Source: an uncultured Iamiaceae bacterium
Lineage (GTDB): Bacteria > Actinomycetota > Acidimicrobiia > Acidimicrobiales > Acidimicrobilacustridaceae
Direction: 5' to 3'
Assembly (NCBI GenBank): GCA_963778895.1
Contig: CAVZVZ010000007.1
Coordinates: forward strand, 68,413-132,412
DNA: 64,000 bases
The notes under the pieces are model-generated. The model was not told the origin of the DNA, did not search any database, and saw nothing but the letters and a program-made list of their open reading frames with translations. Both the position numbers and the translations under genes were made by a program. This document shows positions 9,667 through 40,010 of the stretch, piece after piece (within the stretch, counting starts at the first letter, position 1; each line of letters begins with the position of its first letter).

Positions 9667-10488
9667 ATGCGCTGGCGATGGGGGATCCCGGCTGCGGCAT
9701 TCGTGCTGGTCGTGGGGGCCTGCTCTTCGGAGTCCGAACGAACGGAGGCTCCGGTTGCCTCCGACCCTGTCCGAACGTTCACGGCGCAGGTGGCGAGTGA
9801 GACGGAGGTCGATCCGATCTACCGACAGGGTGTGGCGCGAACCCCGAACGGTTGGGTGTTCTCGTTCAACGACGGGCTCTTTCTCACCGACGATGCGATG
9901 GCGAAGACCATGCAGCTCATGCCGGCCATCCCCGACGAGTGGAAGGCCCGTGGGTTCGATCACCTGGGTGACATCGATGTCGTCGACGGAGTCGTGTACG
10001 CGCCGCTCGAGCAACCGGATTACGACAAAGGCGCGCAGGCCATGCTCGTGTACGACGCGACCACGCTGCAGTACCGCAGCGGCGTCGACGTGAACCAGCA
10101 CCACAATTCGTTCGTCACCGTGGATGCTGATACCGGCATCGCTTACTCCATGGACTTCTTCGGCGGGCAAGCGCTGTTGCGCTACGACACGCGGGACAAC
10201 TGGCGAGCGCTCGATCCGCTACCGATGTCGATGTTCGTCGATCGTGTGCAGGGTGGAGATGTGTACGACGGTGCCGTGTGGTTGTCGACCGACGACGACA
10301 GTGATGGTGTCTATCGCGTCGATCTCACCGACGGCTCGGTGCAATCGCTCGGCTCGATCGGACACACCGATGGTGAAGGTGAGGGCATCGATGCCACCCC
10401 GCTGCCGATCGGCGACCTGCACGTGCTCAGCGCCGATGTGGCGATCGTTCCCATGCGCCTGATCGAGCTGCGAGTCACGGCGAGCTGA
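9667..10488 (+). CDS. hypothetical lipoprotein
   Basis: 273 aa. The signal peptide with lipobox-like cysteine is AAAFVLVVGAC-SSE. I recognise no family. Confidence 0.55.
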   Translation: MRWRWGIPAAAFVLVVGACSSESERTEAPVASDPVRTFTAQVASETEVDPIYRQGVARTPNGWVFSFNDGLFLTDDAMAKTMQLMPAIPDEWKARGFDHLGDIDVVDGVVYAPLEQPDYDKGAQAMLVYDATTLQYRSGVDVNQHHNSFVTVDADTGIAYSMDFFGGQALLRYDTRDNWRALDPLPMSMFVDRVQGGDVYDGAVWLSTDDDSDGVYRVDLTDGSVQSLGSIGHTDGEGEGIDATPLPIGDLHVLSADVAIVPMRLIELRVTAS

Positions 10489-12139
10489 CTTCGGACTCGG
10501 GAACGCTCTCCTCGTCGGGGCGATGGTTCGGCAGACCGCCCGTGAAGAAGAGAGCGGCGACCGCTATGAATCCCGCGATCAACAGGCCAGCCTTCAGGGC
10601 GACCAGCTGCGCCTCCTCGTAGTCCTGGACCAGGGCGTCGGTCGACGCGGGATCGACACCATTGTCTCCCGCGGCCTGACGCACCGCGTCGGACGACACG
10701 AAGCTCACACCGTTCGCGACCTCGACGCTGACCGCCTGCTCGATGTCCTCGCTCACGCGTGGGTCGTCGTCGATCTTCTGGACGAACGTGCTCGTGAGGC
10801 CGGTGAGCACGACCGCCCCGATCAGCGCGACACCGAGCGCCGAGCCGAGCTGCTGCGAGGTGTACTGCAGCCCGCCCGCTTCGCCACGGTCGTTGTCGCC
10901 GACCGCCGACTGCGCCACGTTCCCCAGTTGAGACGCCATGAGGCCCAAACCCACGCCGAGCAGGCCCATGGCGATCGCGAAGGGCACGGACTCGAGGTCG
11001 GGCTTGATGTTGGTGAGCAACATTCCGATCGCGACGACGAGCACGAGCAGCCCGGCTCGGATGATGCGTCGCGGCGCGAAGCGAGCGGCGAGGGCCGACC
11101 CCGCCATCGAGGTGATGAACATGGTGACCGAGACGGGAAGCATCTTGATGCCGGTGTCGAGAGCGTCGAGACCTTGCACGAGCTGCAGGTAGAGCGGAAT
11201 CGCGAAGAACACTCCCATCAAGATCAAGTTCTGCGAGAGGAACATCTCGAGCCCTGATCGCAGTGCAGAGATCTTCAAGAGAGCGAGGTGAACCAGTGGA
11301 TCGCGCCCGACGGCTTCGCGGTGGTGCTGCCACAGCACGAAGAACCAGAGCACCACGCCGCCCGCGAGGACGACGAAGGGGGTCAGCGAGAAGCCGAACG
11401 GCTCGACCGGCGAGTTCTTCGGCTGGATCCAACCCCAGGTGCTGGCCTGCAACACCCCGAGCACGATCAGACCGAGCCCGAGGGATGAGAGCACGGAGCC
11501 CAGCCAGTCGATCTCGGGCTTGCGACCCGGCAGCGGCGCATCGACGAGGAGCTTGACCATCGCGAGGATCGCGCCGACGAGCACGACCTCACCCACGAAG
11601 ACGTAGCGCCACGTGAACTCCGTGGTGACCCACCCGCCGAGGATCGGGCCGACGGCGATGCCCGCGCCGGCGACGCCGCCGATGACGGCGTAGGCAACTA
11701 CTCGGTCCTTGCCCGAGTAGTTCCCGGCGATCAGCGCGGCGAGTGCAGGCAACACCAAGGCGGCGCCGATGCCCTCGAGTACCGACCAACCGATCGCCAA
11801 TGAAGCGACGGACCACGATGCCGCGGTGAGGGCCGAACCGCATGCGTAGATGACCAGCCCCACGATGAACGCCCGGCGACGCCCGAAGCGGTCACCCAAC
11901 TTCCCTCCGGTGATCATGAGCATGGCCATGACCAGCGAGTAGAAGGTGATGACGGCCTGGATGACCGTGACCGTCGTGTCGAAGTCCACCGTCAGCTGGC
12001 TGATCGACACGTTCATGACGGCCTGGTCGAGGACCATCAGGAACTGGGCCAGACCCAGGATCACCAACGGTCCCCACTTCTTCATCCCGTCATCCTCCTC
12101 GTCCGCCACGTAAGTCAGGGAGGAGTATGACCCCTTCAA
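10475..12139 (-). CDS. MFS transporter, DHA2 (EmrB/QacA-like, 14-TMS) drug:H+ antiporter family
   Basis: 554 aa. It has LAQFLMVLDQAVMNVSI, GKLGDRFGRRR and many predicted TM segments. An alternative start is 12085 (MKKWGP). Confidence 0.85.
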   Translation of the reverse strand: MKGSYSSLTYVADEEDDGMKKWGPLVILGLAQFLMVLDQAVMNVSISQLTVDFDTTVTVIQAVITFYSLVMAMLMITGGKLGDRFGRRRAFIVGLVIYACGSALTAASWSVASLAIGWSVLEGIGAALVLPALAALIAGNYSGKDRVVAYAVIGGVAGAGIAVGPILGGWVTTEFTWRYVFVGEVVLVGAILAMVKLLVDAPLPGRKPEIDWLGSVLSSLGLGLIVLGVLQASTWGWIQPKNSPVEPFGFSLTPFVVLAGGVVLWFFVLWQHHREAVGRDPLVHLALLKISALRSGLEMFLSQNLILMGVFFAIPLYLQLVQGLDALDTGIKMLPVSVTMFITSMAGSALAARFAPRRIIRAGLLVLVVAIGMLLTNIKPDLESVPFAIAMGLLGVGLGLMASQLGNVAQSAVGDNDRGEAGGLQYTSQQLGSALGVALIGAVVLTGLTSTFVQKIDDDPRVSEDIEQAVSVEVANGVSFVSSDAVRQAAGDNGVDPASTDALVQDYEEAQLVALKAGLLIAGFIAVAALFFTGGLPNHRPDEESVPESEVSSP

Positions 12140-29227: not shown

Positions 29228-30328
29228 ATGACGGACGTGCTGGAACATCCAAGGCCGGTGGTCGATCCCGAGCCGGTGCAGCCCAGGCGCACGTCGGGAG
29301 GTCGCTTCGATGCGCGCCGTGTCGGTATCGCCGTCGCCATCGCAGGTGCGGTTGCGATGGTCGTCGGGATGGCCGTCGACGGCGTGGAGCACTCGCTCGA
29401 TCCCACCCTGGTGCAGCGTGAAGGGCTCTTCACGCTGACGAACGTCGGCCACGCGCTGCTGCTGCTCGGCGCCGGCGCCGTCGTCGCCGGTCTGCTCCTG
29501 GCTCTCGTCGGCCCGTTCATCTATCGGACTGGCGCACGTGGTGAGCCGCGCCCGGACGCCGAATCGTTCAGCTCACCGCGCCGCTCGTGCTGCTCGCCGT
29601 GTTCGCCGGCGGTGGCCGTATGGGGATCGAACTCGTCGCTCGCGCAGGGCCACTCGCACGACGAGACGGTGGCGACAGGCGACGGCCATACGCACGCCGC
29701 CGGCACGGCCGCGACGCACGCACATCCGACGGTCCCGTACCAACCGCTCGACGCCGCCACGCAGAACACGCTGATCGGTCAGATGAGCCGCGTGCGCGAG
29801 ATCACGATGCGTTATCCGACGGTGGCGGCCGCGACCGCGGCCGGGTTGCGACCGGTCGGGCCGTTCTCGGCCGGTTCCGGCGCGCACTACCTGGTGCCGC
29901 TCAACACCGTGATGTCCGGGCTCGATGGGTTCGATCTCGACCATCCGATCATCTACCTGTACTCGGGCAACGACCCGACATCCACCGTGGTCGGGGTCAT
30001 GTACTACGTCATGAACGTCTCGGCTGCGCCCGACGGATTCGCGGGACCGAACGACGTGTGGCACGTGCACCAGGGGCTGTGCCTGCAGTACACGCCGACA
30101 GGTATCGACCTGCCGCTGCCCATCGACGGCGACGCCACCGCGGAGCAGTGCGCGGCCTTTCCCGGGAGCATGTACATGGACGTGACCGGCTACATGGTCC
30201 ATGTGTGGTCGGGCCCGGGCTGGGAGAGCCCCGACGGTGTGTTCGCTCACGACAACACCGCGCTCACGTGCGCCGACGGGCGGACCGCGGGGCAGGTCGC
30301 CCTCAACGAGGGCTGCGCGGGCCGATAG
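29228..30328 (+). CDS. hypothetical membrane-anchored protein with His-rich linker
   Basis: 366-aa ORF. Two TM helices are followed by GHSHDETVATGDGHTHAAGTAATHAH and a Cys-containing extracytoplasmic domain. I recognise no family. Confidence 0.5.
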   Translation: MTDVLEHPRPVVDPEPVQPRRTSGGRFDARRVGIAVAIAGAVAMVVGMAVDGVEHSLDPTLVQREGLFTLTNVGHALLLLGAGAVVAGLLLALVGPFIYRTGARGEPRPDAESFSSPRRSCCSPCSPAVAVWGSNSSLAQGHSHDETVATGDGHTHAAGTAATHAHPTVPYQPLDAATQNTLIGQMSRVREITMRYPTVAAATAAGLRPVGPFSAGSGAHYLVPLNTVMSGLDGFDLDHPIIYLYSGNDPTSTVVGVMYYVMNVSAAPDGFAGPNDVWHVHQGLCLQYTPTGIDLPLPIDGDATAEQCAAFPGSMYMDVTGYMVHVWSGPGWESPDGVFAHDNTALTCADGRTAGQVALNEGCAGR

Positions 30329-31102: not shown

Positions 31103-32319
31103 TCAGCGCATGTTGCCGGTGTGGCCCAGGCTGTAGCGGCCCGGTTGGGGCCACACCGTCAAGCCGTGCGGACCTCGGCCGACGGGTATGCGGGCTGCGA
31201 GCTGGCCGGTCGTGGTGTCGAACACGTAGACCTCGCTGTCGTACCGGCCTCCGAGCCACAACTCGCGGCCGTCGGGTGTGAGGTTGCCCATGTCGGGACT
31301 CCCGCCGTCGGGTACCGCCCAGGTCGCGACGATTTGGTTGGTCGCGAAGTCGAGCACGGAGATCGTTCCCGGCCCGTGTGGCGCACCCGGGATCGTGTGC
31401 GATCCACGGTTGATGACGTAGAGCTTCGTTCCGTCCCGGCTCGGGTAGAGCCCATGCGTACCGATACCGGTCGGGATGAAGCCGGTCTGCGTGAAGGAGT
31501 CGCCGTCGACCAGGATGACCCCGTCGGTCATCATCTCGGCGACGTAGAAGGTCTTGCCGTCGGGTGAGACCCGAACATCCTGAGGCATCGTGTCGGCGAC
31601 CGAAATCGAGGACGCCGACGACCTTGCGCTCGACGAGATCGATCTTCACGAGGCGGCCCGAGAACTCACACGTCGCGACCAGATAGCGACCGTCGATCGA
31701 GAAGTCGATGTGATTGATGCCGCCGCACTCGGGAACCTCGAGCTGACTGTGCAGCTCCATCGTCTTGGCGTCCCGGAAGTCGAGGCGTTTCAACGCTTCG
31801 GCCACGACGATGGCCTCGGTTCCGTCCGGCGTGAAGTAGAGGTTGTACGGGTCCTCCACGCGTTGCGCGGGCCCGGGCTCGCCCGTCTTCGGGTCGATGG
31901 GGATCAGCGAGTAGCTCTGGTTGTTGAGCACCCAAAGGGTCGATCCGTCGTAGGACGGCACGACGTGTTGCGGTTCGATCCCGGCGGGGAACGTCCCGAT
32001 GACCTGTTTGGTTGCGACATCGATGACGGTGACGTCGTTCGACAAGCCGTTCGGTACGTAGGCGCGTAGGGGCTGGTCGGCCCAGGCCGGGTTGATCTTG
32101 TCGGCGGCCGCCTCGCTGTAGAGGTTGTGCGGGTCGACGACCGGCGGCATGCCGGGCACGGTGTCCACGCATGGCCCCGGCCGTTGTCGTCGTGGGCGGG
32201 GTGGTGGTGACCGCGGGGGTGTCGCTCGACTGTCCGCGGCCGGTCCCCGAGCAGGCCACACCGGCCGTGAGGACGGCCAAGCCGATCAGGGCGAGCACGG
32301 ATGGGCGCGGGCGTCTCAC
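31103..32319 (-). pseudogene. YVTN-type beta-propeller repeat lipoprotein, two +1 frame changes
   Basis: The lipoprotein signal is MRRPRPSVLALIGLAVLTAGVAC (31666..32319). Propeller blades follow in ORFs 30951..32261 and 31103..31588 (repeated ...SPDG..LYV.N......V.VID...). The joins are at ~32165 and ~31600. Confidence 0.7.
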
Positions 32320-32394: not shown

Positions 32395-34403
32395 TCAGTC
32401 GCGGATGATGAGCTTCGCGGTGCCGGCACCTACCTGGCGGCCGTCGCTGTCCTTGGCGACGATCGAGAAGTAGTGCGTGCCCACCCCGCAGGACGAGCCG
32501 GGATTGCAGACGGTCGTCGAACCGCTGGCCGACGAGCTCGACACGCCCGGTCCGGTGACCTCGACGGTGATCGGTCCGTTGGCCGTGACGGTCCACGAGA
32601 ACGTCGATCCGCCGTCGGCGGCCCGGATCGTGCCCGGGCTCATGGAGTACTGGACGTTGGCGATGATCGCCGGCGGCTTGGTCGTGGTGGTTTCGACACC
32701 GCCACCGCCACCACCCCCACCGGCGCTGCCTCCGCCGCCGCCACCGCCACCCGCGGTGGTGTTGGGCGCGGGTTGGGTCGTCGGCACCGTGGCGGGCGCA
32801 GTGACCGGTGGTGCCGCGGTGGTCGACGTCGTGGACGACGGGGCGCGGGTCGTGGTCGAGCTCTCGACCACGGGTCCGGCGTCGATCGCAGTCTTCTTGT
32901 CGTCTCCGCCGCGGGTGAACACCATGACGAGACCGAGCACGATGACCGCGGCCACGCCGATGCAGGCGGGGATGAGCCACTTGCGACGTGAGTCACCGCG
33001 ATCTGTCGCTCGGCTGGCCACCGGCTCGTGGGCCGGCCCGGTGCTTCGTGGGTCGACGACGGGAGGCACCGGCGGTGCGCTCGACACGGGGGTGACCAGC
33101 GCGGCGAGTGGCATCGCGGTGGTGTCCGCGCCGTTCGGAGCCACGACCGGCTCGACCGTCGGTATGGGGGTGGGTTCAGCGACGGGCGCAGGAGGTGCCA
33201 CTTCGGCGGGCGGTTCGACCACGGGTGCGGCGACGTCGGCCGCGAGCGCCGAGGTTTCGCCCTTGGCGCCGAGGAAGGCGGCGGCGGCTGCTCCGGCCGC
33301 GGCAACGGTGCCGGCGACGGCCGTGCCGGCGGGTGCGGTGCGGTCGCGTGTCTCGATCGGTGCGGACGCCACTTCGGCGACGGGCTCCAGCGCCGGTTGC
33401 GGCTCGGCTCTGGTTCGGGTTCGGGAGCAGGCTCGTGGAGCTCGGGCGCCACCGGTTCCGGCTCGACCGATGCGGTTGGTTCGGGTTCCGGCTCGGGCTG
33501 GGTGCGGCGAACGCTGGTTCGGCCGCAGCAACGCGGCACGCCGGCGGCAGCGACGCCGACGGCGAACGGCGCCCACGAGGTACCCGTGACGCGCCGCTCG
33601 ACGTCAGCGGGGACGGCAACGAGGGGCACCGCCTCGAAGATCTCGATCGCGGGGATGGCGATGAGCGAGCGCGACCGACAGACGGAGCACCCACGGAGAT
33701 GGCCGTGGATCACTCGTACGGCCGTCGAGTCGAACTGGCGGACGTTGTTCGCCTTCAGGTCACGCGTCAGCTCGTCATGATCGGGCTTGCCGCCGGCCCA
33801 GAGCAGTCGAGTGCGCAGCGCGGCCGCCAGGCCTTGGGGTGCCTTGCGGATGATGTCGTCGACGCGGAAGATCGATTCACCGGTTGCGGCTGCGATCTCA
33901 TCGGACGCCAGTGCGTGACGCCAGTGCAGATCGGTCACGTCACGCGCGCGATCGCCGAGTACGTCGAGTGAGTCCCACAGCATCACGCTGATCGAGGGGT
34001 CGGCGCCGAGCGCAACCGGATCGGTGCCGCGCGTCAACCGCTCCGCGGCTCGCTTGGCGCCGCGGTTCGCCTTGCCGAGCGAGCGGGGTCGCGCCGGCAC
34101 ATCGCGTTCGATGGCGCCCATGACGCGAGCGCCGAAGCTCGTGTCGTCGTCGACGAGTTGGCCTTGGAGTGACGTGAAGGTACGCAACATGGCCTCGGCC
34201 GCGGAACGCTCGTCCGCACCACGATGCAGCGCTCGGTCGAAGGCGCCCGGCGACCACTCGGCCACGAGGTGGCCGTAGGCGTCGGCATCGCCGCGCTTCG
34301 CCTGGGCCAGCCACGTGTCGTCGCGTGCCCGACGCCGACGAGCGCGCTGGATGCGGTCACCCGTCTCTGTGGCGCTCGCCTCGTTGGTGCTCTGGTTGCT
34401 CAC
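32395..34403 (-). pseudogene. ECF-sigma-like / zinc-finger anti-sigma-like / single-pass membrane protein with C-terminal Ig-like domain, frame change in the Pro/Glu linker
   Basis: GTG 34403 follows AAGGA. The N-terminus is sigma region-2/4-like (AQAKRGDADAYGHLVAEW..., SDEIAAATGESIFRVDDIIRKA). Then come HLRGCSVCRS, a PEPEPEP linker (join ~33430), a TM helix (WLIPACIGVAAVIVLGLVMVF), an S/T/P-rich region, GGGGGGGGSAGGGGGGGG and a beta-rich C-terminal domain. Confidence 0.55.
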
Positions 34404-34895
34404 GGCTGAGTCCTTCGCCTGCCTCTCGGATGCCGGAGCGGTGGACCAACTCACAGGCTGGTCACCCGTCCGGGCGAGCAGCAGTCGGTGGATCACCCGA
34501 TCGTGGACCGCCCACGATCAACCGTTCTGCCGCTCACGGTTCTCTTCTTCGAGGTTCCTGTCGGACGCGAGGGACCGGTTCTTGAATGCAACAGAGGGTC
34601 AATCCTGGCGAGGAATCCGCTGGTGGCCTGGGTGGAGTGGGCATTCTCACGATCCGTGTCGAGGCGAGTGGGTCCGTACGGCCCATCCCGCCGGAGCCGC
34701 CCTGGATCGGCCCGGGCCGGCCCGATCCGCCCGGCGCCGGTCCCCTGAACAGGGTGTTCAGCGGGGAGGCCACGCGCAGCCGCGACGGCAAAACAACAGT
34801 TGCGTCTGACATCGAATCGCGCCCATCGTGGCCGCGGCCGCACCCGGGGAGCACCACCACCGCCGCCGGGCCCGCGACCGAGGGGGACGAACGAA

Positions 34896-35409: not shown

Positions 35410-35980
35410 ATGCTCGAGCTGGCCGGCCCCCTAGCCGTCGCTGCGCTCGTCCTCGCCGCGGGTGGTGCGTTCAAGCTGCGCGATCCGGCTCCCACTCGTG
35501 CGATGTGGGAGGCCCTCGGCGTGGGCGGCCCGCGGAGTCGACGGCTGCTCACGTTGCTGTCGGGTGTCGTCGAGCTGGCCTTGGGTCTGGCCACGTTCCT
35601 GCTCGGCGGATGGGTTCTCGGGTTCGCCACGGCGGCGGCGTTCACGATCTTCGCGGTGCTCGCGGCGCGACTCACCCAGCTGCCCGCCGTGTCATGCGGT
35701 TGCTTCGGGAAGCACTCCGGTCGCACGACGAGACTGCACGTGATCATCGATGCCGTCGTCGCCGTGGTTGCGCTCGTGGCGGCGTTGTTCGACGCGCCTG
35801 GATTCCTCGGCGCTCGAGCGGATCTTCCCGGTGCGCGGCATCGCGTTCGTCGGCTTCGCGCTGCTGGGCGCCTGGTTCGTCGTCGCCGCTCTCACGGTGC
35901 TGCCCGAAGCACTGGCCGCCGCCGAGCGCGGACCGCGAACGCCGGCTGTTCGCAGCTTCGACATCACGGGAACACGATGA
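35410..35980 (+). pseudogene. MauE/DoxX-family redox-associated membrane protein, one +1 frame change as assembled
   Basis: It has four TM helices and the MauE-type SCGCFGK motif. The true C-terminus (ERIFPVRGIAFVGFALLGAWFVVAALTVLPE...TGTR*) lies in the +1 frame (ORF 35750..35980), with the join at ~35815. The track ORF 35410..38190 is a read-through artefact. Confidence 0.7.
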
Positions 35981-38190
35981 AGACCCGCGCCGCGCTCGAC
36001 AGCATGACGACGGGTGGGGCGCCCACGTCACGCTTGGTCGACCGAGTCTCGGGACTGTTGGCGCGACGAACCGGGCGGCGCGGCTTCCTCGCGCGTTCGG
36101 CAGTCGTCGGCAGCGCTATTGCCGCGAACCCCATCACCTACGCCCTCAAACCCACCACCGCGTACGCCGCCATCTGTAGTTGCAGCGGCTCGGCCTGCGA
36201 CTGCGGGCAGCTGTGCTGCGACGGCTACACCGAGTTCTGCTGCACGCTCAGCGGCGAGAACAAGTGCCCGCCCGGCACGCAGTTGGGCGGTTGGTGGAAG
36301 GTCGACGGCAGTGGGTTCTGCGGCGGCGGACCTCGCTACTACATGGATTGCAACGCATCGTGCAACGGCTGCGGCTGCGGGGGCAGCGGACTGTGCGGCG
36401 GCGGGTGCTCGGGTACCGGATGTGGTTGTGCGTTCGGCGACTGCAACAACCGCAAGGCCGGGTGCACGATGTTCCGGTACGGCCAGTGCAATCAAGACAT
36501 CGGCTGCCTCGGGCCGATCGTGTGCCGCGTCGTCACGTGTGTGCCGCCCTGGGCCCTCGACGGCTCGTGCACCACGACGGTTCGGGTCGACGGCGCTACC
36601 GCGGGCCACGATCGAGCTTGCCTGCACAGGGTGGTCGGTGGCTTCGATGCCGCGGACGAGGCGGCAGGTGGCGCCCGAGTCAGCGGCTGGGCACTCGACT
36701 TCGACACACAGGCGCCGGTCGACGTCGCGGTCTACGTCGACGGCGGCTACGTCGGTTCGCGTTCGGCCAACACCTACCGGCCGGACGTCGGCGTGGCCTA
36801 CCGCGGTTGGGGTGACAATCACGGCTTCGACTTCACGGTGCCTGTCGGCGGAGGCGCGGTCAAGCAGGTGTGCGTCTGGGGCATCAACGCCGGCGCCGGG
36901 TCGGACAACACGTTCCTCGGTTGTCGCACGGTGCGGCTCTCGACGCCGTTCGGCGCCCTCGACGGAGTCATGGCCGGGTCAGGCTCGATCCGTCTGACCG
37001 GTTGGGCGATCGATCCCGACACCACCAACCCCCTCAAGGTGCATGCCTACGTCGACAACGTGTTCAAGGGTGAGTTCACGGCCAATGCGTTTCGGCCCGA
37101 CGTCGGTTCCGCGTACGGGTACGGCAACAACCACGGGTTCGACATCACCGTTCCCGTCGCGGGTGGCACGCACAACGTGTGCGTGTTCGCCATCAACCAG
37201 GGCGCCGGCAGTGTCAACAACCAGATCGGCTGCCGCACCGTCAACGTCGGTATGCCGTACGGCTCGGTCGACAAAGCCGTGTCGACCGGAGGTGGCTTGT
37301 TCATCCAGGGTTGGGCGGTCGACCCCGACACGACCGATCCGATCGTCGTGCACGCCTACGTCGACAATGTGTTCAAGGGAGAGTTCACCGCCAACGTCTC
37401 ACGCCCGGATGTGACCTCCGTGTACCCCAGCGTCGGGCCGAACCACGGGTTCGAGTTCACGGTCCCGGCCGCACCCGGGCAACACAACCTGTGCGTGTAC
37501 GCCATCAACAACGCCGAAGGCGGCAACCCGATCATCGGTTGTCGCACCGCCAACGTGCAGACCGGTGACCCGTTCGGCGCGGTCGACAGCATCGTGCCGG
37601 GCCCCGGCACCGTACGGATGAAGGGCTGGGTGATCGATCCCGACGCCACCGGCCCCGTCAAGGTGCACGTCTACATCGACGACACGTTCTCCGGCGAGTT
37701 CGTCGCCGACGGTTCTCGGCCGGACGTCGCGTCGGCGTACCCCGGCTACGGACCGGTGCACGGCTTCGACATCAGCATCCCCACGTTCATCGGCTTCCAA
37801 CAGGTGAGCGTGTACGGGATCAACCTCGGTACCGGGGTCAACAAGCTCGTCGGGGCCAAGATGATCGTGGTCGGCGGGAACCCGTACGGCGCGCTCGACT
37901 CGGCGGTCGGACAGGCCGGCGGGATCAAGGTCAGCGGCTGGGCGATCGATCCGGACACGGCCGACTCGGCCAACGTGCACGTGTACGTGGACGGCACATT
38001 CCGCGGCGAGTTCACCGCCGATGGCACCCGCGCCGACGTGGGCGCCGCCTATCCCGGGTACGGCAATGCCCACGGGTTCACCGCCACGGTGCCGGCGCCG
38101 TCGGGCTCACACCAAGTGTGCGTGTACGTGATCAACCTCGGATGGGGCGGCAATCAGCTGATTGCGTGCCGAACGACGAACGTGCCCTGA
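35977..38190 (+). CDS. Tat-exported cysteine-rich (methylamine-dehydrogenase light-chain-like) protein fused to five tandem 104-aa repeats
   Basis: Intact 737 aa. The ATG overlaps the MauE-like stop (ATGA). The twin-arginine signal is TGRRGFLARSAVVGSAIAA. Residues ~66-216 contain 26 Cys, including NKCPPGTQLGGWW (compare MauA NCPPGTKLA..SW). Residues 218-737 are 5 repeats. Confidence 0.75.
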   Translation: MKTRAALDSMTTGGAPTSRLVDRVSGLLARRTGRRGFLARSAVVGSAIAANPITYALKPTTAYAAICSCSGSACDCGQLCCDGYTEFCCTLSGENKCPPGTQLGGWWKVDGSGFCGGGPRYYMDCNASCNGCGCGGSGLCGGGCSGTGCGCAFGDCNNRKAGCTMFRYGQCNQDIGCLGPIVCRVVTCVPPWALDGSCTTTVRVDGATAGHDRACLHRVVGGFDAADEAAGGARVSGWALDFDTQAPVDVAVYVDGGYVGSRSANTYRPDVGVAYRGWGDNHGFDFTVPVGGGAVKQVCVWGINAGAGSDNTFLGCRTVRLSTPFGALDGVMAGSGSIRLTGWAIDPDTTNPLKVHAYVDNVFKGEFTANAFRPDVGSAYGYGNNHGFDITVPVAGGTHNVCVFAINQGAGSVNNQIGCRTVNVGMPYGSVDKAVSTGGGLFIQGWAVDPDTTDPIVVHAYVDNVFKGEFTANVSRPDVTSVYPSVGPNHGFEFTVPAAPGQHNLCVYAINNAEGGNPIIGCRTANVQTGDPFGAVDSIVPGPGTVRMKGWVIDPDATGPVKVHVYIDDTFSGEFVADGSRPDVASAYPGYGPVHGFDISIPTFIGFQQVSVYGINLGTGVNKLVGAKMIVVGGNPYGALDSAVGQAGGIKVSGWAIDPDTADSANVHVYVDGTFRGEFTADGTRADVGAAYPGYGNAHGFTATVPAPSGSHQVCVYVINLGWGGNQLIACRTTNVP
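36628..38187 (+). repeat. Five tandem 312-bp (104-aa) coding repeats
   Basis: Units start at aa ~218, 322, 426, 530 and 634. The shared pattern is (F/Y)G(A/S)(L/V)D....G.(I/V).(L/V).GWA(I/V)DPDT..P..VH.YVD..F.GEF.A...RPDV...Y.G.G..HGF......G.H.VCV(Y/F)(A/G)IN.G.G.N..IGCRT.NV. Confidence 0.85.
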
Positions 38191-38203
38191 GGAGGTAGAC
38201 CGC

Positions 38204-39013
38204 ATGCTCACACTCGTCATCCTCGAGGGTCTGGTGATCGCCGTGCTCGGCGTGCTGGTGGTGGGCCTACTCCGGAGCCACGCCGAGATCCTGCGCCGGC
38301 TGCACGAGCTGGGTGCCGGCATCTACGACGAAGAGGCGGACGGCGCCACGGCGAACGGGAACGGCGTCACCTCGACCATCGAGCTCGCAGAGCGGCCGAA
38401 GATTCGCACGCGCGATGGCGTGGCCGAACCGCGTGAGGTGGCGACGGTCGGCGGACATGACGTCAGCGGCGTCACGCCCACCGGCAACGGCAAAGCCGTT
38501 GGCGTCGTGGGCACCGAGCATTCGACCTTGCTCGCGTTCTTGTCGAGCGGATGCGGCACTTGTGGCGACTTCTGGCGCGCGTTCGGGCGGGGCGAGGCCG
38601 ACGCCTTGCCGGGACGCGATACCCGGCTGGTGATCGTGACGAAGAGCCCTGAGGAAGAAAGCGTGTCAGCCGTACGCGAGCTGGCCACCAGCGAGCACGT
38701 CACCGTGATGTCGTCCCAGGCCTTCGACGACTACGGGGTACCGGTGAGCCCGTACTTCATCCTCGTCGACGGGCCATCGGGCCAGGTCGTGGGCGAGGGT
38801 GCGGCCGGCAACTGGTCGCAGGTCGCCAATCTCTTGCGTCAAGCCGCCGCCGACGCCGGCATTGCCTTGGAAGGCGAGTCGGTGCGCAGCACCAAGCGAC
38901 CCCGTGCCGGTACCGAGCGCGAGGGTCGAGCGGACGAGGACCTGTTGGCCGCGGGCATACGCCCCGGCCATCCGAGTCTGTATCCCGAGCCCCGAACCGA
39001 CGACGAGGAGTAG
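38204..39013 (+). CDS. membrane-anchored thioredoxin-fold protein (MauD/TlpA-like, CGTC active site)
   Basis: ATG 38204 lies 8 nt after GAGGAGG. The N-terminal TM helix is LTLVILEGLVIAVLGVLVVGLL, and the redoxin-like core LLAFLSSGCGTCGDFW...SPYFILVD follows. A charged C-terminal tail ends the protein. Confidence 0.7.
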   Translation: MLTLVILEGLVIAVLGVLVVGLLRSHAEILRRLHELGAGIYDEEADGATANGNGVTSTIELAERPKIRTRDGVAEPREVATVGGHDVSGVTPTGNGKAVGVVGTEHSTLLAFLSSGCGTCGDFWRAFGRGEADALPGRDTRLVIVTKSPEEESVSAVRELATSEHVTVMSSQAFDDYGVPVSPYFILVDGPSGQVVGEGAAGNWSQVANLLRQAAADAGIALEGESVRSTKRPRAGTEREGRADEDLLAAGIRPGHPSLYPEPRTDDEE

Positions 39014-39018
39014 CGCGC

Positions 39019-39498
39019 GTGGCCCGGCTGGAAGCGTTCGGATTGGTGGCAGACCCACCGAAGGGTTGGGACGGCGAGATCTATCGCCGCGATGCTGCGT
39101 TGCCCGACGGCGTGTCGGCGTTGTTCGGCTCGACCGAAGTGGTCACGCCCATCATGCACATGGCCAACTTCCCGTTGCCGGCCGAGCGCGGCGACTACGG
39201 CGGCGGCGCAGTCGAGTTGATGGGACGCGGCGGAGTGTTCGTGTCGCTACTCGAACATCCTCCGCGCGAGGGAGATACGGCATTGTTCGCCGGCAAAGGG
39301 ATCCCGTGGCCGTTGAGCTCGTCGGACTTCGATCCACAGCAAATGCAACGCACGATCGGCGGTCAGGCCGGTTGTCAACGTTTCTTCACTCACAACGGCC
39401 GGGCGTTCTGCTTGTACGTCGCCATCGGCAGCTACGGCTCGCGCGCCGTGCTGGTGCGCGAGGTCAACAACGCGCTGGCCTCGGTCGACCTCGCCTAG
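39019..39498 (+). CDS. hypothetical protein (last gene of the Mau-like cassette)
   Basis: Intact 159-aa ORF starting 5 nt after the previous stop. I recognise no family. Confidence 0.5.
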   Translation: MARLEAFGLVADPPKGWDGEIYRRDAALPDGVSALFGSTEVVTPIMHMANFPLPAERGDYGGGAVELMGRGGVFVSLLEHPPREGDTALFAGKGIPWPLSSSDFDPQQMQRTIGGQAGCQRFFTHNGRAFCLYVAIGSYGSRAVLVREVNNALASVDLA

Positions 39499-40010
39499 CT
39501 GTCGGCTGCCTTCTCGGCGTCCGAGAGCGCACCCTTCAGGCTCTCGACGGTCTTGTCGTCGAGCGGGTGGCGGATCACCTTGACCGGCTTGTAGGGCTCG
39601 AACGCCCTGGTCATCTGGTCGGCATCGCCGCCGGCCCCGATCAGCAGCAACGCCGATGTTCCCTTGTCGAGCTCACTGCGGATGTCGTTGAGCATCTGCT
39701 TGTCGAGTCCGTGCTCCTTGATGGCCTCGCCGGTGATAGCACCCGCGCCGAGCCCGGCGGCCCACAGCGCGAGGAAGCCGACCGGCGGGAACAGCAGGCC
39801 CACGAAGAGGCCGGCGATACCACCCCAGAACGCACCCTCGGCCACCGAGCCGTGCGTCGTGTGGGTCGACACGCGACCCGACTTGTGGCGTTCGACGACG
39901 GCGACGTCGTCGACCCACGCATAGTCGAGCTCCTCGAGGGCGCGGACCGCCGCTAGGGCACCCTGCGCCGCGTAGGTGTCGTCGAACTTCAGAACGATCA
40001 GATCAGCCAC
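39495..40010 (-). CDS. DUF1269 domain-containing membrane protein
   Basis: 171 aa. ADLIVLKFDDTYAAQGAL...VVERHKSGRV is followed by a Gly-zipper TM region (GAFWGGIAGLFVGLLFPPVGFLALWAAGLGAGAITG), typical of DUF1269. Confidence 0.7.
   Translation of the reverse strand: MADLIVLKFDDTYAAQGALAAVRALEELDYAWVDDVAVVERHKSGRVSTHTTHGSVAEGAFWGGIAGLFVGLLFPPVGFLALWAAGLGAGAITGEAIKEHGLDKQMLNDIRSELDKGTSALLLIGAGGDADQMTRAFEPYKPVKVIRHPLDDKTVESLKGALSDAEKAADS

Follow-up and report, generated by a model that had tools for sequence, protein, structure and literature searches.

A MauE/MauD-type gene cassette without a dehydrogenase, conserved around a predicted Tat-exported cysteine-rich protein of Acidimicrobiia

To our knowledge, no mechanism has been defined for MauE, MauD or MauF, accessory proteins known from the mau cluster. 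In two reports, both citing van der Palen et al. (1997), MauE is placed, together with MauD, in the process that matures the small subunit of the enzyme methylamine dehydrogenase (MADH) (10.64898/2026.03.05.709764; PMC7794033). MauE has recently been proposed to be a DsbB-like oxidase, as it complements the loss of dsbB in Escherichia coli, an activity that depends on its CXC motif (10.64898/2026.03.05.709764), and mauE and mauD homologues have been noted beside small cysteine-rich open reading frames (ORFs) in candidate clusters for peptides synthesized ribosomally and modified post-translationally (RiPPs) of Streptomyces (decRiPPter, PMC7794033). Here we analyze a 64,000-nt stretch of DNA from an uncultured Iamiaceae bacterium (contig CAVZVZ010000007.1, positions 68,413-132,412, forward strand), hereafter the window, which carries a cassette of four genes, G1 to G4, with homologues of MauE (G1) and MauD (G3) on either side of the gene for a cysteine-rich protein with a twin-arginine translocation (Tat) signal (G2). 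On balance we think it probable that G2 carries a head domain related to MauA and displayed on the cell wall, and that a dedicated thiol-disulfide relay of the MauE/MauD type folds it. We found nothing in the literature describing this Tat-exported family, its cassette or G4, and neither Pfam nor NCBIfam holds a model for the G2 family or, in the case of Pfam, a domain on the head of any member, which agrees with an earlier, sequence-only reading of this DNA, which was not aware of a characterized function for the architecture.

The four genes lie on the plus strand between 35410 and 39498, in the same direction and tightly packed. G1 and G2 (35977-38190) share an ATGA overlap at 35977-35980, a 13-nt gap containing GGAGG separates G2 from G3, and a 5-nt gap separates G3 from G4, the GTG start codon of which is preceded by GAGGAG. 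The gene order, the spacing and the strong ribosome-binding sites are thus as the sequence-only reading had described them. The features, with the evidence for each in brackets, are as follows.

35410-35980, plus strand: G1, MauE-like five-helix membrane protein, about 190 amino acids (aa) once corrected, with conserved Lys22 and Glu55 (PF07291; hhalign against Paracoccus MauE)
35695-35703, plus strand: CGC motif of G1 (Cys96-Gly-Cys98) within SCGCFG (read from the sequence; family alignment; 10.64898/2026.03.05.709764)
35977-36168, plus strand: signal region of G2, aa 1-64, with long n-region, TGRRGFL, h-region and putative AYA-A cleavage site (sequence; family alignment)
36169-36627, plus strand: cysteine-rich head of G2, aa 65-217, 26 Cys (family alignment; AlphaFold2 model; Foldseek; hhalign)
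36628-38190, plus strand: tail of G2, five tandem immunoglobulin (Ig)-like repeats of about 104 aa, stop codon included (self-alignment)
38204-39013, plus strand: G3, MauD-like thioredoxin-fold protein, 269 aa (family alignment; hhalign and HMMER against Paracoccus MauD)
39019-39498, plus strand: G4, conserved 159-aa protein with a predicted compact alpha/beta sandwich fold (conservation; AlphaFold2 model)

The closest described system is the mau cluster of Paracoccus and Methylobacterium, for which we took the Paracoccus cluster mauR-F-B-E-D-A-C-J-G-M-N as reference (locus L082). The cassette resembles it in setting MauE and MauD homologues, and in most relatives a MauF homologue (G5), beside a cysteine-rich protein with a Tat signal; in the alignments weighed below, the head and MauA also appear to share a CPPGT core, and the head to hold equivalents of Trp57 and Asp76. 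Unlike the mau cluster, however, the cassette is without MauB, MauG, amicyanin, MauJ, MauM and MauN, carries the extra conserved gene G4, follows the order E-A'-D-(F) rather than F-B-E-D-A, and belongs to Acidimicrobiia rather than Proteobacteria. Its head has 26 Cys, as opposed to the 12 of MauA, shows no Trp108 equivalent and continues into a tail that is either Ig-like or cell-wall-binding. The decRiPPter clusters likewise place MauE and MauD homologues outside a mau cluster, beside an ORF with at least 8 Cys that they are interpreted as modifying; compared by description, those Streptomyces products are small predicted peptides, whereas the present one is a Tat-exported surface protein of 300-740 aa with a conserved 150-aa domain (PMC7794033).

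The dedication of the relay is argued by conservation. Hidden Markov models (HMMs) built from G1, G3, G4 and the head were searched against six-frame translations of fetched loci related to the window (81 in all, 54 of them with enough flank; designated L followed by a number), and G1, G3 and G4 stood beside G2 in 53 of the 54, nearly all from Acidimicrobiia. The sequence-only reading had proposed neighbourhood conservation as a check, and the cassette passes it. The commonest order, G1>G2>G3>G5>G4, was seen in 27 loci. The family itself is large: a word-indexed search returned 559 proteins with the head, an exhaustive HMM search gave 741 clusters at 50% identity, and species-representative genomes hold at least 551 head loci, almost all labelled Acidimicrobiia or close taxa. 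Moreover, MauE and G2 are fused in frame in L038:5658-7538, L039:3661-5535 and protein P0397, with no stop between them; the five hydrophobic helices are followed first by a linker rich in Arg, then by the Tat motif and finally by the head. Three further apparent fusions (P0420, P0501 and P0503) contain out-of-frame junk, are probably assembly artefacts and were set aside. Because of the near-universal synteny, the ATGA overlap and these in-frame fusions, the relay would seem to be dedicated to G2.

Conversely, little else travels with the cassette. All-against-all clustering of the ORFs of the 81 loci yielded no recurrent partner beyond G1-G5, no other family reaching more than about 12 of the 81; a pyridine-nucleotide-disulfide oxidoreductase turned up in 9 loci and a glycosyltransferase in 7, and the genes that flank the cassette in the window do not accompany it elsewhere. 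With Paracoccus MauB, MauG and amicyanin as tblastn queries, no match was obtained in the 64-kb window or in the 81 loci, save one cupredoxin in L066, which extends to the whole window the earlier statement that the cluster itself lacks all three. That reading had also pointed to a beta-propeller gene at 31103-32319. It is indeed a lipoprotein gene on the opposite strand, although not an intact one (see below). As a hidden heavy chain it was rejected: the product is YNCE-like (PF21783), not Me-amine-dh_H, and occurs in only one other locus.

Turning to the individual genes, frame-corrected G1 matches the Pfam MauE model (PF07291) with 49 bits against a gathering cut-off of 27 (E 9e-13), which answers the scan for this family that had been suggested. 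The G1 family profile aligns with Paracoccus MauE (hhalign 93%, E 2.5e-7; HMMER 38 bits). According to the recent preprint, MauE proteins carry FG after the CXC of their active site, a Lys in the first transmembrane helix (TM1) and a Glu in TM2, the conserved Lys and Glu lying beside a docked ubiquinone in a docking prediction that leaves their role untested (10.64898/2026.03.05.709764). All of these residues are found in G1, where SCGCFG (C96, C98) is kept in at least 95% of 59 homologues and K22 (TM1) and E55 (TM2) are conserved over the same set; the thioredoxin-family neighbour fits the partner proposed there as well. The enzymes of the preprint are, however, four-helix generalists with a predicted periplasmic CXC loop, whereas five hydrophobic segments, and a CGC loop rich in Lys and Arg, are seen in G1 and Paracoccus MauE, and G1 stands in an operon with one client.

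G3 combines an N-terminal TM helix (aa 1-23), the segment LLRSHAEILRRLHELG, a CGTC motif (C117, C120; nt 38552-38563), a cis-Pro loop VPVSPYF and a conserved C-terminal tail AGIxPGxPSLY. A membrane anchor together with a thioredoxin fold bearing CxxC and a cis-Pro loop is the architecture of MauD, and the membrane-anchored, CGTC-bearing thioredoxin-fold protein recognized by the sequence-only reading is therefore borne out. Against Paracoccus MauD the G3 family profile gives an hhalign probability of 94% (E 9e-8) and 27.5 bits in HMMER; against the PDB it finds only weak matches to thioredoxins of the TlpA/StoA type, the best at 15.6 bits. As Paracoccus MauD scores above every solved thioredoxin-like chain, G3 is, on sequence grounds, MauD-like, although not a MauD equivalog. 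G3 itself matches no Pfam model, redoxin models included, and no NCBIfam model, and 8 of 59 family members show weak matches to Thioredoxin_2. The proposed similarity to MauD thus stands by profile comparison, while that to the TIGR02661 and redoxin models does not.

G2 is a protein of 737 aa with 34 Cys, exactly 26 of which fall between aa 67 and 215. It begins with a long leader that bears the twin-arginine motif T-G-R-R-G-F-L, a hydrophobic h-region and an A-Y-A/A site (TGRRGFLARSAVVGSAIAA...AYA), and both the Tat motif and AYAA are conserved through the family alignment. The features of a Tat substrate (S/T-R-R-x-F-L, h-region, AxA site) are accordingly all present, as is the 26-Cys domain, so that the textbook twin-arginine signal and extreme cysteine content claimed for this protein are correct. 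G2 is predicted to be exported via the Tat translocon and to be cut after AYA. Of the Cys columns of the head, 23 are invariant or nearly so, identity of the head across the class is 55-77%, and the invariant non-Cys residues include W106, W107, K108, R120, Y122, D124, F166, R167 and Y168. The tail is not conserved: in the window its Ig-like repeats follow the pattern GWAxDPD...VYVD...RPDV...HGF, with one Cys pair in most repeats, and give a weak Big_7 match, and relatives carry SLH, CWB2, LGFP or DUF4214 cell-wall-binding modules in its place. Because the head is conserved to this degree and the tail varies, with cell-wall-binding modules, the head appears from sequence to be the functional unit of G2, displayed on the envelope, and its strong conservation suggests a specific activity or ligand. 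In the source databases the family is named only [quoted passage not shown] or "hypothetical."

A side observation concerns the head of a close relative. On a metagenome-assembled contig labelled Vicinamibacteria (L003:7899-8562), the head is 93-96% identical to the 35977-36627 region of the window; outside the head, identity in that G2 falls to about 54%, and for G3 of the same contig it is about 60%. Domain-level recombination could account for this, as could very strong purifying selection on the head.

The fourth gene encodes a 159-aa protein without a signal peptide, which AlphaFold2 models as a small alpha/beta sandwich at a predicted local distance difference test (pLDDT) of 90.6. No Pfam, NCBIfam or PDB-HMM match was found for it, and its best Foldseek matches (Tsi3, PsbP, MucB and LpqN-type folds, E at least 0.008) are not significant. 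Kinship with MauJ or MauF was considered and rejected: the comparisons of G4 with MauF and MauJ, which together with that of G5 against MauE served as cross-controls, gave hhalign E values of 0.3-0.4.

The parallel with the mau cluster is strengthened by G5, a membrane protein of about 225 aa found in 51 of the 81 loci (42 of the 54 with enough flank), between G3 and G4 or beside the cassette. Its profile aligns with Paracoccus MauF over 177 columns (hhalign 98%, E 4e-14; HMMER 73 bits), so that by sequence similarity three mau accessory genes (E, D and F) are represented in the family-wide cassette. The G5 genes hold a further peculiarity. At the motif RSTWSP[C]G, which has Cys in Paracoccus MauF and in 12 other loci, an in-frame TGA often takes the place of the Cys codon (36 TGA, 8 TGC and 4 TGT), as in L008:10600-11283, L052:10281-10958 and L048 (Salinilacustrithrix flava chromosome, about 10060-10740), and in the TGA form a conserved TM helix is encoded upstream in the same reading frame. 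Downstream of the TGA, a first hairpin (nt 12-27) is essentially invariant in 36 of 36 sequences, with one G-U wobble, and in a second (nt 30-46) three pairs have changed in a compensatory manner. Because of the alternation of TGA with Cys codons and the hairpins that follow, the MauF homologue of the related loci is probably a selenoprotein with an element like a selenocysteine insertion sequence (SECIS), its selenocysteine (Sec) standing where other members have Cys; a Cys/Sec alternation of this kind would mark the residue as redox-active. Rfam models run on ten loci gave no known SECIS family, and we found no publication linking MauF with selenocysteine.

Taken together, these features suggest the following mechanism. 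The Tat signal would send G2 to the translocon, and cleavage after AYA would expose the 26-Cys head on its variable tail. G2 would be the substrate of a relay that forms and/or shuffles the approximately 13 disulfides of the head. In this relay G1 would act as a MauE-type membrane oxidase making disulfides at CGC, possibly passing electrons to quinone by analogy with the docking prediction, and G3 would carry oxidizing equivalents between G1 and the substrate through CGTC. Where present, the MauF homologue would add a third redox residue, one conserved Cys or Sec, and the signal-less G4 may serve as an accessory protein, possibly a chaperone or adaptor. Such an arrangement recalls the DsbB-DsbA and VKOR-thioredoxin pairs, in which a membrane protein with a redox Cys pair works with a thioredoxin-fold CxxC partner. 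It differs from them in having no sequence relationship to DsbB, VKOR or DsbA, in appearing to serve one client and in the MauF-like third component, with its single Cys or Sec, that relatives add.

On which side of the membrane the relay would operate is a separate matter. The sequence-only reading had envisaged a dedicated extracytoplasmic oxidative-folding system; the dedicated folding is supported by the Mau homology and by the synteny in 53 of 54 loci, but in view of how charge is distributed, and of the fusions between MauE and G2, "extracytoplasmic" is not established. In the G1 homologues, Lys and Arg residues average 2.7 in loop 1-2, 2.5 in the CGC loop and 3.3 in the C-terminal tail, with 0.3 in loop 2-3 and 0.5 in loop 4-5; in G3 the mean is 0.16 before the anchor and 2.3 after it (38204-38330 region). 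The pattern is repeated in Paracoccus MauE and MauD and in the MauF homologue, in which the Cys/Sec segment is rich in Lys and Arg. With redox loops so charged, all three redox motifs would face the cytoplasm by the positive-inside rule, at odds with the periplasmic location that the literature assumes. The fusions point the same way: with TM5 followed by a linker rich in Arg and a Tat motif, the C-terminus of MauE would have to be cytoplasmic, and so would the CGC loop, two helices earlier. The relay may therefore work on the cytoplasmic face of the membrane, oxidizing and folding the cysteine-knot head before export, although we hold this to be a doubtful possibility. It would be consistent with the lack of a signal on G4 and with the Tat signal on a 26-Cys domain. 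The Tat pathway accepts folded proteins only; oxidation before export, if true, would explain why both the G2 family and MauA use it. Against the cytoplasmic face stand the TOPCONS topology of the preprint, which puts the CXC loop in the periplasm, and the rescue of periplasmic FlgI and PhoA by two other MauE proteins in an E. coli dsbB deletion (10.64898/2026.03.05.709764).

Whichever face it works on, the proposal of a disulfide relay dedicated to a MauA-related head must be weighed against a number of contrary results, some of which concern the helper genes. In the window assembly, G1 has no intact reading frame. Its span of 571 nt is read in the frame of 35410 for the first 142 or so codons and in frame +1 for the last 48 or so, which end at the TGA of the overlap with G2. 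As written, frame 0 instead continues through an Arg-rich nonsense stretch into G2, giving a 926-aa ORF. The earlier description of the first gene thus holds as to a membrane protein with SCGCFG and fails as to a single clean ORF. Alignment with relatives, including the intact 190-aa homologue on a short-read Joint Genome Institute contig (L085) that served as reference for placing the indel, locates an extra base at about 35835 in the context GCGCGG. An indel error of the assembly is likelier than a genuine pseudogene, because two frameshifts spread the beta-propeller gene at 31103-32319 over three frames (for its homologue in L002, the best tblastn match was a single one of about 348 codons) and because G3 is also split in L084, a relative 94% identical. 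In addition, G3 gives no match at E up to 1 to TIGR02661, the MauD equivalog model (cut-off 188.6 bits), which scores 364 bits on Paracoccus MauD as a control. The MauF homologue is absent by tblastn and HMM search from the whole 64-kb window, an arrangement common to 7 of the 54 loci. Finally, MauE may be a generalist oxidase, in which case nearness to G2 need not mean exclusivity.

This last point opens onto the rival that survives best, namely housekeeping oxidative folding, with G1 and G3 as general DsbB and DsbA equivalents and G2 as one abundant client encoded beside them. Two MauE homologues do replace DsbB in E. coli, and the preprint argues that MauE is a generalist because only about 10% of MauE-bearing species have MauA (10.64898/2026.03.05.709764); since MauE can act as a general DsbB-like oxidase, a "Mau-type" label alone does not imply cofactor maturation. 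Housekeeping nevertheless seems unlikely here, because G2 lies between G1 and G3 in almost every locus and overlaps G1 or is sometimes fused to it, because no solved protein of the DsbA, ResA or TlpA type comes as near to G3 as MauD does, and because the cassette also keeps a homologue of MauF, a protein otherwise known from the mau cluster.

The remaining contrary results bear on the kinship of the head with MauA, the light chain that carries the tryptophan tryptophylquinone (TTQ) cofactor. The AlphaFold2 model of the head (pLDDT 76.7, predicted template modelling score 0.72) was compared by Foldseek with 350,542 PDB chains, and the nine best matches were all light chains of aromatic amine dehydrogenase (AADH) or MADH, but at E 1.1-4.9 and template modelling scores of 0.17-0.38, so that the link is not statistically secure. 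Domain-only hhalign of the head against 120 MauA-family proteins gave E 0.002-0.003 at a probability of only 10-13%. PF02975 (Me-amine-dh_L) did not match any of 40 family members at E up to 10, and neither phmmer nor the head family HMM recovered a light chain, or anything else credible, from all PDB sequences. Full-length precursors of G2 and MauA do align at an hhalign probability of 97% (E 2.5e-11), but this score was rejected as evidence of kinship once leader and domain had been split, being largely generic Tat-leader similarity: E. coli Tat leaders score 13-24 against the G2 family leader, a single MauA leader scores 30, and TorA scores 34 against the MauA leader profile. The alignment obtained in the global mode of hhalign was meaningless and was discarded.

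What argues for kinship is that the nine best Foldseek matches are all TTQ light chains, together with the content of the domain-only alignment and the company the gene keeps, which is the same accessory context as that of mauA. The core pairs DGYTeFCC..G.N.CPPGT of the head with DG.lC.CCGG..t.CPPGT of MauA. The extended alignment is colinear, placing GWW on S-Trp57-V (W106 on Trp57), RYY.D124C on AYR-Asp76-CC, and FRYGQCNQ.i.C.G on vYRP..NDIi-Trp108-CFG. In this weak alignment the Trp108 column holds G176 in the window and Gly, Ala or Pro across the family, so that only one of the two TTQ tryptophans has a counterpart in the head. We conclude that the head is a probable but unproven distant relative of the methylamine and aromatic amine dehydrogenase light chains; the sequence-only reading had called the substrate "differently built," and on this admittedly weak structural and profile evidence it probably is not. 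Whatever its ancestry, a TTQ cofactor of the known kind cannot form with Gly, Ala or Pro in that column, and with no heavy chain, no MauG and no second TTQ tryptophan equivalent, the head is not an amine dehydrogenase subunit.

A different cross-linked cofactor could still be imagined. The head would then be a cryptic quinoprotein, with a Trp-derived or Cys-Trp cofactor on the WWK / RYY.DC site, acting as a surface redox enzyme or electron carrier, and G1, G3 and G4 (with G5 in relatives) would serve cofactor maturation besides disulfides. The equivalents of MauA Trp57 (W106) and Asp76 (D124) are invariant, as are several other aromatic or charged non-Cys residues, which is unusual for a purely structural knot, and conservation is far higher in the head than in the tail. 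We nonetheless regard such a cofactor as quite improbable, given the Gly, Ala or Pro at the Trp108 position, the weakness of the MauA alignment itself, and the finding that, near the cassette, neither MauG nor a flavoprotein, a radical-SAM enzyme or a heavy chain is recurrent. Least likely of all is a head loaded with metal or an Fe-S-type cluster in the cytoplasm and exported folded by Tat, with G1 and G3 keeping its thiol state: Tat is the typical route for proteins that acquire a cofactor before export, the head is dense in CxC, CC and CGCG motifs, and a P-type ATPase and CopC lie near the cassette in L001, but metal-related neighbours are not conserved across loci, the best structural matches have a disulfide-knotted fold, and the helpers are homologous to a disulfide-forming enzyme and its thioredoxin partner.

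If the head is indeed folded by a dedicated MauE/MauD-type relay, the Mau trio would have a second natural client, in a different phylum and with neither a dehydrogenase nor TTQ chemistry. This would separate the folding of a cysteine knot from the making of a cofactor, rendering the first step testable alone. The head itself defines a large new domain family, which appears to be displayed on the cell wall of a widespread group of soil, freshwater and marine bacteria, and the topology evidence raises the possibility of oxidation prior to Tat export.

Some minor observations concern the surroundings of the cassette. On the plus strand at 29228-30328, a 366-aa ORF that is hydrophobic in its N-terminal region and contains a His-rich stretch (HSHDETVATGDGHTHAAGTAATHAHP) may be metal-related; it was not found in related loci. 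A 618-aa ORF at 32640-34496, on the minus strand upstream of the cassette, has an N-terminal part that looks sigma-factor-like by eye, a CxxC (HLRGCSVCRSR) and a long Pro/Arg-rich tail, and in L002, L003 and L007, which are the closest relatives, it likewise lies next to the cassette. In L085, a relative with about 80% DNA identity, two extra genes, for a 302-aa protein and a 189-aa putative lipoprotein, lie between G3 and G4 (L085:4154-5786, against 39013-39019 in the window), and the DUF1269 gene that follows G4 in the window (39495-40010, minus strand) is missing; because of these differences, the borders of the cassette are seen to be rearranged locally.

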